From: Promethearchaeota archaeon
Lineage (GTDB): Archaea; Asgardarchaeota; Lokiarchaeia; Sigyniarchaeales; Promethearchaeaceae
Reading direction: 5' to 3'
Assembly: GCA_016933055.1 (NCBI GenBank)
Contig: JAFGBS010000019.1
Coordinates: 90,001 to 122,000 of the forward strand
Length of the DNA: 32,000 nucleotides
Below the pieces are notes generated by a model. It was not told the DNA's origin and ran no database searches. It was given only the letters and a program-made list of their open reading frames with translations. This document shows positions 15,982 through 20,384 of the stretch, one piece after another (position 1 is the stretch's first letter; each line of letters starts with the position of its first letter). A program made the position numbers and the translations under genes.

Positions 15982-17100
15982 ATGCGATATTGTAAAAGAT
16001 GTGTAATGCCAGATACACGCCCCGGTATAAAATTTGATGAAAACGGAGTATGTTATCCTTGTCTCCGTGAGGAAAAGAAAGATCATATAGATTGGAATGC
16101 ACGTTATCGGGAATTAGAAAAATTGTGCAATAAATATCGAAAAAATTCCGATGAGTATGACTGTATTATTGCAGTAAGTGGAGGAAAAGATTCGCATTTT
16201 CAAGTTCATATAATTAAAAACATTATGCAAATGAATCCCTTGTTGGTTTCAGTAACAGATAATTTTCCAATGACCAAAGCAGGACAATCTAATTTTGATA
16301 ATATTTCAGAAGCATTCGGATGCGATATAATAGTAATGAAACCTAATATAAACCTCCAAAAGAATTTAATGAGAAAAACCTTTGAAAACTATGGGAAGCC
16401 AACTTGGCATATTGATCGTTTAATCTATACTTATCCACTCCATATGGCAATTAAATTTAATATACCTCTTGTTGTTTTCGGGGAGAATATTTCTCTTGAA
16501 TACGGGGGTCCTGGTGCAAATGATACATATTCTGCTATTGATCAGATCGAAAATGGTGTAGCATCTGACATTTCTTGGGAAGAATTAATCGATGAAAATA
16601 TTTCCATGAAAGATTTAGTTATGCTTAAAGCACCAACGAAAGAAGAAATGGATTCAGTTCATTTAGATCCGATTTATTTAAGCTATTTCATGAGATGGAA
16701 TGATTACCGGAGTTACAATATCGCAAAAAGATACGGATTCAAAGACCTAGCTAACGAATGGGAAAGAGAGCACCATATTGAAAATTTTTACCAAGTGGAC
16801 AATATGGCATATTTAATTCATCCGTGGATGAAATACCCGAAATTCGGTCACGCGACTGCTACTGATGCAGCCTGTAGATTTATAAAAATCGGTAAATTAA
16901 CCCGTGAGCAAGGAATTGAATTGGTGAAAAAACATGATCATAAGTTGGATCAAAGAGCTGTCCAAGAGTTCTGTGATTTCTTGGGATATACTAGAGCGGA
17001 ATTCTATGCAATTGTTGATAAATTCTATAATCCAGATTTATTCACAAAAGATCCTAAGACTGATGAATGGATTCTCAAAGATCCAATTTGGAGCCACTGA
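15982..17100 (+). CDS. N-acetyl-sugar amidotransferase (WbpG/WbuX/PseA family, PP-loop ATPase)
   Basis: N-terminal CKRCVMPDTRP..CYPC, YDCIIAVSGGKDSH PP-loop, GEN, KYPKFG, LTREQG. Confidence 0.88.
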   Translation: MRYCKRCVMPDTRPGIKFDENGVCYPCLREEKKDHIDWNARYRELEKLCNKYRKNSDEYDCIIAVSGGKDSHFQVHIIKNIMQMNPLLVSVTDNFPMTKAGQSNFDNISEAFGCDIIVMKPNINLQKNLMRKTFENYGKPTWHIDRLIYTYPLHMAIKFNIPLVVFGENISLEYGGPGANDTYSAIDQIENGVASDISWEELIDENISMKDLVMLKAPTKEEMDSVHLDPIYLSYFMRWNDYRSYNIAKRYGFKDLANEWEREHHIENFYQVDNMAYLIHPWMKYPKFGHATATDAACRFIKIGKLTREQGIELVKKHDHKLDQRAVQEFCDFLGYTRAEFYAIVDKFYNPDLFTKDPKTDEWILKDPIWSH

Positions 17101-17252: not shown

Positions 17253-17598
17253 TAATCAACATCTATTCCGTGATACCCAATCTATCCCATAAGATAAGTG
17301 AGCAGAGGGTATATAGTAAGAAGTGCCATCCCTTTGGTGTACCATCAAACGCTTTGCATCTATGCCTCATGCTACGCATTCGGCTTTGGGTGTAGCCTAC
17401 CACCCTCATGATAAACGGGTGGGTAGTATTTCGACTCCCTACCCGCACCAAGGACTTAAGTATTCTACATCTGATCGGGTATGAAATTGGCAGAAGATGG
17501 TTATTTGGTTAAGATTTTTCAATTTCACGCTGTTTTACGATATTTTTACGTTAAAAAATTGATATTTACGATCTATTCAACAGAATAGATGTTGACTA
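17253..17598. mobile_element. Non-coding TIR element, copy 1 (MITE-like, 346 bp including both TA)
   Basis: Starts TA-ATCAACATCTATTC and ends GAATAGATGTTGAC-TA (15/16 inverted match); no credible ORF. Confidence 0.6.
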
Positions 17599-18024
17599 AT
17601 CAATATCTATTCCATGATACCAAAAAATATTGCTTCGATTGAATACACGATATATAGTAAGAAGTGCCGTCAATTCCCTACGGGAGTGTAACTTCATCAT
17701 ATATGTGCTCCCTAACTCCTACGGATGTGCATTGGATCTTCCATTTGGACCACGTTCCCGCACCAAGGACATCTGTTTATTATATCTGATCGGGTATTTA
17801 AGCGACATGGGGGTTGTTACCTTTTTGTAGCCTTTTGTTACGCCTATCCATCGGTGGTCTATCAACCACCTCGGATAGACAAGCCTATTGTTTGTGAAGT
17901 GAGATTGCAATTGAGTTTGGATGGATCGTAAATTTTCAATTTTATAGGCTTGACGTTGTTTTACGATAGTTTTACGTTAAAGAATTGACATGTACGATCT
18001 ATTCAACAGAATAGATATCGACTA
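17597..18024. mobile_element. Non-coding TIR element, copy 2 (MITE-like, 428 bp), sharing the central TA with copy 1
   Basis: Starts TA-ATCAATATCTATTC and ends GAATAGATATCGAC-TA. Shares five ordered blocks with copy 1: 23/25, 18/18, 14/14, 14/14 and 65/72 identical. Confidence 0.6.
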
Positions 18025-20241: not shown

Positions 20242-20308
20242 TAATCAACATCTATACGGGTCCATCCATGCAATTTTGTAACCCATTAACGTAATTCTAT
20301 CGTAAAAC
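20242..20308 (-). repeat. Lone, inverted, degenerate right end of the 17253-family element
   Basis: TAATCAACATCTAT, then TTAACGTAA-nnn-TATCGTAAAAC ending 67 nt from the start, the same spacing as the reverse complement of 17532-17598. Confidence 0.6.
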
Positions 20309-20384
20309 TAGTCTGAATGTATAAGAAGTAATCGTAGAACAATTTTTTCAATCATTACATTATCCAGTGGCTAAAAGGAATACT

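Follow-up and report, generated by a model that had tools for sequence, protein, structure and literature searches.

What are the two abutting noncoding elements at positions 17253-18024 of this stretch of archaeal DNA, and how did they come to lie end to end? The window, meaning the whole 32,000-nucleotide stretch that was analyzed, is C27:90001-122000 of an assembly that comprises 3.76 Mb in 36 contigs, has a G+C content of 35%, and is rated 91% complete. A sequence-only reading of the window proposed that the pair consists of nonautonomous elements with terminal inverted repeats (TIRs), mobilized by an IS630/Tc1-mariner enzyme, or alternately that their junction is a recombination site. The analysis reported here indicates that they probably belong to a genus-specific family of nonautonomous inverted-repeat (MITE-like) elements that target TA within a palindrome mimicking two abutted element ends.

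Copy 1 (17253-17598, plus strand) is a member of the main family, measures 346 bp from TA to TA, and aligns with positions 1-350 of the nhmmer profile described below, with a score of 243. Copy 2 (17597-18024, plus strand, 428 bp from TA to TA) belongs to a long subfamily and carries an extra module of roughly 90 bp that is typical of that subfamily. Its nearest relative, at C17:281482-281903, is 86% identical. As the sequence-only reading stated, both copies are TA-flanked, and the single TA at 17597-17598 is common to both. Each copy starts with TA-ATCAAYATCTATTC and finishes with GAATAGATRTYGAC-TA. The left terminal repeats occupy 17255-17268 (ATCAACATCTATTC) and 17599-17612 (ATCAATATCTATTC) on the plus strand, and the right terminal repeats occupy 17583-17596 and 18009-18022, where the minus strand reads GTCAACATCTATTC and GTCGATATCTATTC, respectively. 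When TA and the adjacent 16 nucleotides are compared, the ends form an inverted match at 16 of 18 positions in copy 1 and at 14 of 18 in copy 2. The two copies comprise the same blocks in the same order and differ by inserted hairpin modules, with 74% column identity over their whole length.

The final 72 bp of the two copies are identical at 65 of 72 positions. The same reading had pointed out this similarity, a perfect subterminal hairpin (ATCTATTC-AACA-GAATAGAT; 17571-17590 on the plus strand of copy 1, and identical at 17997-18016 in copy 2), and ACG at offsets 1, 11, 22, and 42 of both 72-bp ends, and all three observations were confirmed. Phased subterminal repeats of the TTTTAYG type are located at 17527-17570 (plus strand) in copy 1 and at 17953-17996 in copy 2. 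A highly conserved block with a TATA-like core, GGTATATAGTAAGAAGTGCC, is present at 17308-17327 (plus strand) in copy 1 and at 17649-17668 in copy 2, and perhaps this block acts as a promoter. Within each copy, a third terminal motif, TA-TTCTACATCTGATCGGGTAT, is found at 17461-17482 (plus strand) in copy 1 and at approximately 17778-17797 in copy 2. This internal motif is oriented as the left end and is inverted relative to the right end; counted by eye, it matches the right-end variant ATCAACATCTATACGGGTC at about 14 of 19 positions. The 30-bp junction of the two copies (17583-17612) is self-complementary at 26 of its 30 positions.

The pair sits between two convergent genes, one a 372-amino-acid ORF (15982-17100) and the other encoding a fused ATP-sulfurylase/APS-kinase (sat-cysC). 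The ORF had been labeled an amidotransferase; its only Pfam match is to a PAPS-reductase domain and is below threshold (E = 0.0012; 19.4 bits, with a cut-off of 22.5). The minus strand at 20242-20334 (C27:110334-110242) carries a lone right-end fragment of the element family, corresponding to profile positions 259-351. It lies 2.2 kb downstream of the pair and begins with TA-ATCAACATCTATAC.

Other copies, which the sequence-only reading expected a genome-wide search to reveal, are numerous. BLAST detected 55 related stretches in this genome, and an nhmmer profile of 351 positions, built from 16 copies, detected 63 matches that total 14.9 kb. Thirty-five of the 63 are near full length, spanning 250 or more of the profile's 351 positions (240-426 bp; median, 329 bp). 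About 25 further profile matches share the last 90-100 bp only and belong to another family, of approximately 200 bp. The 16-mer that combines TA with the TIR, TAATCAACATCTATTC, occurs 40 times in this genome with at most one mismatch (20 + 20), whereas the reversed control does not occur at all, so the termini of the pair are found far more often than chance would allow. At least four other short families, with lengths of 118, 229, approximately 200, and approximately 335-427 bp, have TA-ATCAAYATCTAT termini and unrelated interiors. Several unrelated interiors behind one terminus are the classical hallmark of MITE families that depend on a single transposase. In 27 copies that were compared, no ORF keeps its position or frame, and all 35 long copies are intergenic. 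The proposal that the pair consists of nonautonomous TIR elements is therefore sustained by the dispersed copies, by the unrelated interiors with the same termini, and by the noncoding, intergenic character of the family. Of the outcomes that the sequence-only reading had named as refuting it, none that could be checked was observed.

Full copies share a fixed order of parts. TA and the left terminus are followed by CGTGATACCC, a variable loop, GTGAATAGRG-GGTATATAGTAAGAAGT, GTCAATTTG, a first variable hairpin, CCTCATGCTACGCATTCGGCTTTTG, a second variable hairpin, and CCCGCACCAAGGAC. Next come the internal TA-TTCTACATCTGATCGGGTAT, a third variable module, the phased TTTTAYG-type repeats, a right-end variant, and finally ATAGATGTTGAY-TA. 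The left terminus reads ATCAACATCTATTC in about half of the copies and is degenerate (GTTAAATTCTATGC; GTWAAATTCTATKC) in about half, with 9 of 14 positions matching the right end. Three right-end variants exist: two have a hairpin, which is short in one and has a long loop in the other, and the third, which is the commonest, has none. The hairpin ATCTATTC-AACA-GAATAGAT is restricted to one of these variants, and many copies have ATG where the pair has ACG; the consensus of the subterminal repeats in the family is TTTGACGnTGTTTTAYGATAGTnTnAnGTTAAAGG. Both the hairpin and the ACG spelling thus characterize a subfamily and are not family-wide. A different hairpin, CCTATCC-N4-GGATAGG, occurs 12 times, compared with once in the control, and is an optional module that is found at varying positions. 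Its sites include C4:25429, C11:158230, C16:254026, C17:704188, C30:123590, and C35:16306, as well as sites inside main-family copies. All cases whose coordinates were checked fall within main-family copies or adjoin ends of the family of approximately 200 bp.

The family is confined to one genus in what was searched, namely to this genome and that of a sister species. The 16-mer TAATCAACATCTATTC occurs twice in the single sister genome (Promethearchaeota archaeon isolate AMARA_1) and 0-2 times, which is the control level, in each of 119 further genomes from the same order. A 23-nucleotide left end used as a query against GTDB genomes matched the sister MAG alone, and a 27-nucleotide family block had no matches in JGI metagenomes. 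The 16-mer gave 42 single matches in IMG/VR; sequences beyond the 16-mer are unrelated, none has a properly placed inverted partner, and these matches look like chance.

TA is present at 60 of 84 scored ends and on both sides of 15 of 29 full copies, and most of the remaining ends are one base off TA. Among the 15 copies with TA on both sides, the direct repeat extends past TA by 0-1 nucleotide on both sides in seven. In the other eight, the repeat extends by 2-6 nucleotides on at least one side, as a target that mimics the element ends would predict; one copy alone has 5 nucleotides on both. A direct repeat beyond TA is never consistent on both sides. Read outward, the 60 TA-flanked ends have the consensus T at -9 (37 ends), -8 (43), -7 (52), and -6 (51), A at -4 (35), and Y at -3 (43), and the pattern is the same whether it is read from left or right ends. 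From this consensus the target is palindromic, TTTTnAY|TA|RTnAAAA; it resembles the inverted element tip TGTTGAT|TA and mimics two abutted ends. In three cases (the pair studied here, C17:540039/40, and C35:16186/7), two ends abut on exactly one TA. A TA beside a resident end is a near-perfect target, which explains these three abutments, including the tandem pair.

An allele of the pair locus without elements would read ...CATTTAAA-TA-GAAAAAAG... An orthologous empty site was not obtained from the sister genome, in which the relevant contig begins inside sat, and synteny is broken at the two other loci examined. An exact-protein look-up returned one Logan contig, and an identical sat gene was assembled from run SRR13394437.

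Candidate enzymes were sought by six-frame profile searches with Pfam models. PF13358 (DDE_3/IS630) has no match in this genome or its sister, and neither genome of the genus has a match to PF13359 (Harbinger-type DDE_4) or PF00665 (rve). In this genome, PF01797 (Y1), PF01548 (IS110), PF00239 (serine recombinase), and PF07282 (TnpB zinc ribbon) are likewise without matches. PF01609 (DDE_Tnp_1) matches one decayed fragment in this genome (C8:3190-3495) and, in the sister genome, an intact 421-amino-acid transposase between two close-set genes (L037, G001:C33:3371-6997). The possible ends of this sister insertion sequence, ATTCGACA, are unrelated to the TA-flanked family. Four genes for tyrosine recombinases of the integrase/Xer type (PF00589) are present in this genome, and none adjoins an element. 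Tyrosine integrases of 423, 197, and 352 amino acids are encoded on the small contigs C8 (7.7 kb) and C33 and at a contig end, C17:817460, and these genes are probably parts of integrated elements.

An autonomous element was also sought between paired ends up to 3.5 kb apart, in small contigs, and at contig ends, and these regions contain only ordinary genes or short repeats. Thus, the transposase or recombinase gene that the sequence-only reading suggested looking for is not found between any paired ends, and no known TA-duplicating transposase was found in this genome or its sister. An assembly that is 91% complete does not prove that the enzyme is absent. Of 13 other genomes in the same taxonomic family, 4 carry IS630 transposases, and one genome of a related genus has two copies of a 1349-bp IS630 element whose ends are unrelated to those of the TA-flanked family. 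With PF13358 absent from both genomes of the genus and these ends unrelated, the assignment of the pair to IS630/Tc1-mariner was not borne out. The mean in a survey of Asgard genomes (2026) is 8.5 insertion sequences per genome, and IS200/IS605 elements are present in more than 65% of genomes (PMC13343696). Relative to that mean, the present genome is unusually poor in insertion sequences while being rich in MITE-like repeats. The whole assembly has about 100 MITE-like ends and almost no insertion sequences.

Prokaryotic MITEs related to IS630/Tc1-mariner include SM1 of Sulfolobus, which is mobilized by ISC1048, Nezha of cyanobacteria, and MITEEc1 of E. coli. In a study that names MITEEc1_IS630, prokaryotic MITEs are as a norm taxon-specific and intergenic (PMC11602168). 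Like these MITEs, the elements described here are noncoding, multicopy, and intergenic, measure approximately 100-450 bp, have TIRs of about 14-16 bp bordered by TA at each end, and form several families on one set of termini. They differ in that the two genomes of the genus have no detected IS630-type transposase and the termini match no IS630 element of related genera. They are also long for MITEs, are mosaics of conserved blocks and swappable hairpin modules, and have an extended palindromic target that mimics their ends. In general terms, they have the small size, lack of coding capacity, TIRs, and many dispersed copies that characterize MITEs, and an autonomous element with the same termini was not found. 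IS630/Tc1-mariner is the closest known model, but a cognate transposase with matching ends, a defining feature of that group, was sought and not found.

Members of the IS30 family produce 2- to 3-bp duplications, use palindromic hot-spot targets, target resident inverted repeats, and form junctions in which inverted repeats are separated by 2 bp. The present family resembles them in its 2-bp repeat, its palindromic target, its insertion directly beside a resident end, and its ends that are 2 bp apart. However, neither genome of the genus has a detectable rve-domain transposase, and with only about 74% identity between them, the two abutted copies do not represent a replicative dimer. The family is also reminiscent of BIME/REP, Correia/NEMIS, BOX, and RUP elements, which are modular, hairpin-rich, intergenic, and lineage-specific, and which in some genomes occur without an active transposase. 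REP elements depend on Y1 RAYT enzymes for their movement and do not have TA-flanked inverted-repeat termini such as those found here, and Correia elements, which have TA duplications, are bacterial and measure approximately 100-155 bp, whereas the present elements are archaeal and longer. Aloposons were considered as relatives and dropped, as they are unrelated giant-gene elements.

The fixed scaffold of the family, in which hairpin-forming inserts of unrelated sequence occur at four fixed places, is reminiscent of a structured noncoding RNA gene, perhaps a guide- or bridge-type RNA of a mobile-element enzyme that has been lost. Transcription of such an RNA would begin downstream of the TATA-like block and stop at the T-runs that precede the right end, with the conserved blocks, among them GGTATATAG, forming the core of the RNA and the hairpins its peripheral stems. 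Single copies do fold better than shuffled sequences (z scores of -2.4 to -4.4), and for 20 of 27 copies the fold is more stable on the plus strand. However, the scores include the pairing of inverted termini, and the strand bias is weak and can be explained by the excess of T over A. Moreover, cmscan searches of Rfam gave no match at E values up to 1, RNAalifold predicted no consensus pairs in alignments of 27 and 23 copies, and with core columns only, its predicted pairing was limited to the DNA inverted repeats. An all-against-all screen for column covariation revealed noise only, and the candidate stem ATACCC/GGGTAT has one-sided C-to-T changes and no compensatory pairs. A TnpB, IscB-type, or IS110 gene, as such a guide would serve, also was not found in this genome. 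A structured-RNA gene therefore has no support here and is very unlikely. Subterminal right-end hairpins and the asymmetry of left and right ends might alternately suggest derivatives of hairpin-dependent, single-strand transposons of the IS200/IS605 (PATE) or REP/RAYT type, and in one subfamily the outer arm has a T-to-C change and the inner arm the matching A-to-G change (ACCTATTC...GAATAGGT). Yet true TIRs with TA on both sides are foreign to these types, which have hairpins at both ends and make no duplication, the commonest right-end variant has no hairpin, and this genome has no Y1 match; the idea is extremely improbable and already largely refuted. The abutment of ends on exactly one TA, the self-complementary junction, and a target consensus that mirrors the inverted tip on both sides could also reflect conservative site-specific recombination with a 2-bp crossover at TA, performed by an enzyme of the serine type or of an unrecognized class. 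In that event TA would not be duplicated, and joined ends, GTTGAY-TA-RTCAAC, would pair with genomic sites that mimic them. The failure to find a DDE transposase and the presence of four tyrosine recombinase genes are consistent with recombination. On the other hand, serine and IS110-type recombinases were not found in this genome, repeats do not extend past TA as the 6- to 8-bp overlap of tyrosine recombinases would require, and about 100 dispersed, loosely similar sites are unlike att or dif. Recombination of this kind is therefore quite unlikely, and the earlier suggestion that the junction is a tyrosine-type site with an 8-bp spacer is disfavored by the lack of any consistent direct repeat beyond TA.

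A host function at the DNA level is a further possibility, in which the elements would be protein-binding arrays or structural repeats, similar to REP/BIME or Correia elements, that were kept or co-opted. Among 23 aligned copies, pairwise identity does not exceed 90%, with 67% as its median, and despite this divergence GTGATA, TCATG, ATTCGGC, ATGTTGA, and other blocks persist and are retained in the sister-species copy. Strongly conserved columns cluster into six runs of at least five columns, compared with 1.1 expected, a pattern that would not be predicted if dead copies had simply decayed neutrally. It is possible that the blocks reflect either long-lived active lineages selected for transposase binding or retention for a host role. 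The CCTATCC-N4-GGATAGG hairpins that recur as optional modules across families also are compatible with such a role. However, the blocks are equally expected from active source lineages under selection for transposase binding, the termini number 40 in one species and 2 in the other, and the copies have no bias of orientation or position relative to neighboring genes, as all four arrangements are represented (by 11, 9, 8, and 6 copies). For these reasons, a host function seems rather improbable. Finally, the mover might be a kind of enzyme unrecognized in Asgard archaea that chooses targets resembling joined ends, with a related version in which the scaffold was co-opted for host function, and we regard this as unlikely.

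The preferred explanation remains a family of nonautonomous MITE-like elements. A transposase supplied in trans would recognize the 14- to 16-bp termini, TA|ATCAACATCTATTC, and probably also would read the phased TTTTAYG repeats and the internal third terminal motif. The element would then be cut out and pasted into the TA within TTTTnAY|TA|RTnAAAA, with duplication of TA. The tandem pair would have arisen when one copy inserted at the TA beside another. Mobility, TA duplication, and the type of enzyme are what we infer from the common termini, the flanks, and the target consensus, and an enzyme resembling IS630/Tc1-mariner is the best guess, to which we assign somewhat less than an even chance. 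Against the preferred explanation are the missing autonomous partner, the age of the copies, the degenerate left ends in about half of them, and the clustering of conserved blocks. With the enzyme missing from the assembly, the copies are probably remnants of earlier bursts; alternately, they could be served by a gene that is unassembled or unrecognized.

Several observations bear on the age of the copies. No copy in this genome is more than 76% identical to the sister-species copy. When the assembly was compared with itself, repeats of at least 300 bp were few and consisted of paralogous genes, local tandem repeats, and copies of these elements, with no insertion sequences, and those above approximately 90% identity were paralogous genes only. 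The low pairwise identity and the lack of highly similar long repeats imply that the assembled copies are old, and they give no direct sign of recent movement. Contigs do, however, break inside repeats, at the end of C9, both ends of C18, the end of C35, the start of C2, the end of C19 and start of C20, and the end of C23, and the overlaps that these broken ends have in common are identical and measure 84-89 bp. The assembly is therefore limited by the repeats, which explain its breaks at several contig ends, and some younger copies may be collapsed.

The family is an expected, ordinary kind of genomic parasite, whose twist is that the mobilizing enzyme was not found in the assembly. It documents a rich, lineage-specific set of MITE-like repeats in a Loki-type Asgard archaeon, and no description of MITEs in Asgard archaea was found in the literature searched. 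With its missing transposase and end-mimicking target, the family is a useful bait for the mobilizing enzyme in better assemblies. For annotators, hairpin-rich intergenic elements in this genome represent one repeat superfamily and not many separate candidate RNAs. Another repeat type, a long hairpin of the form CTACGCTAAAAGCC...GGYTTTTTAGCGTAG, is found in the flanks of C2:130166 and C9:17479, at C6:343015, and at C30:900-1193. This repeat often adjoins main-family copies, which indicates that several repeat families are clustered together in large intergenic gaps.
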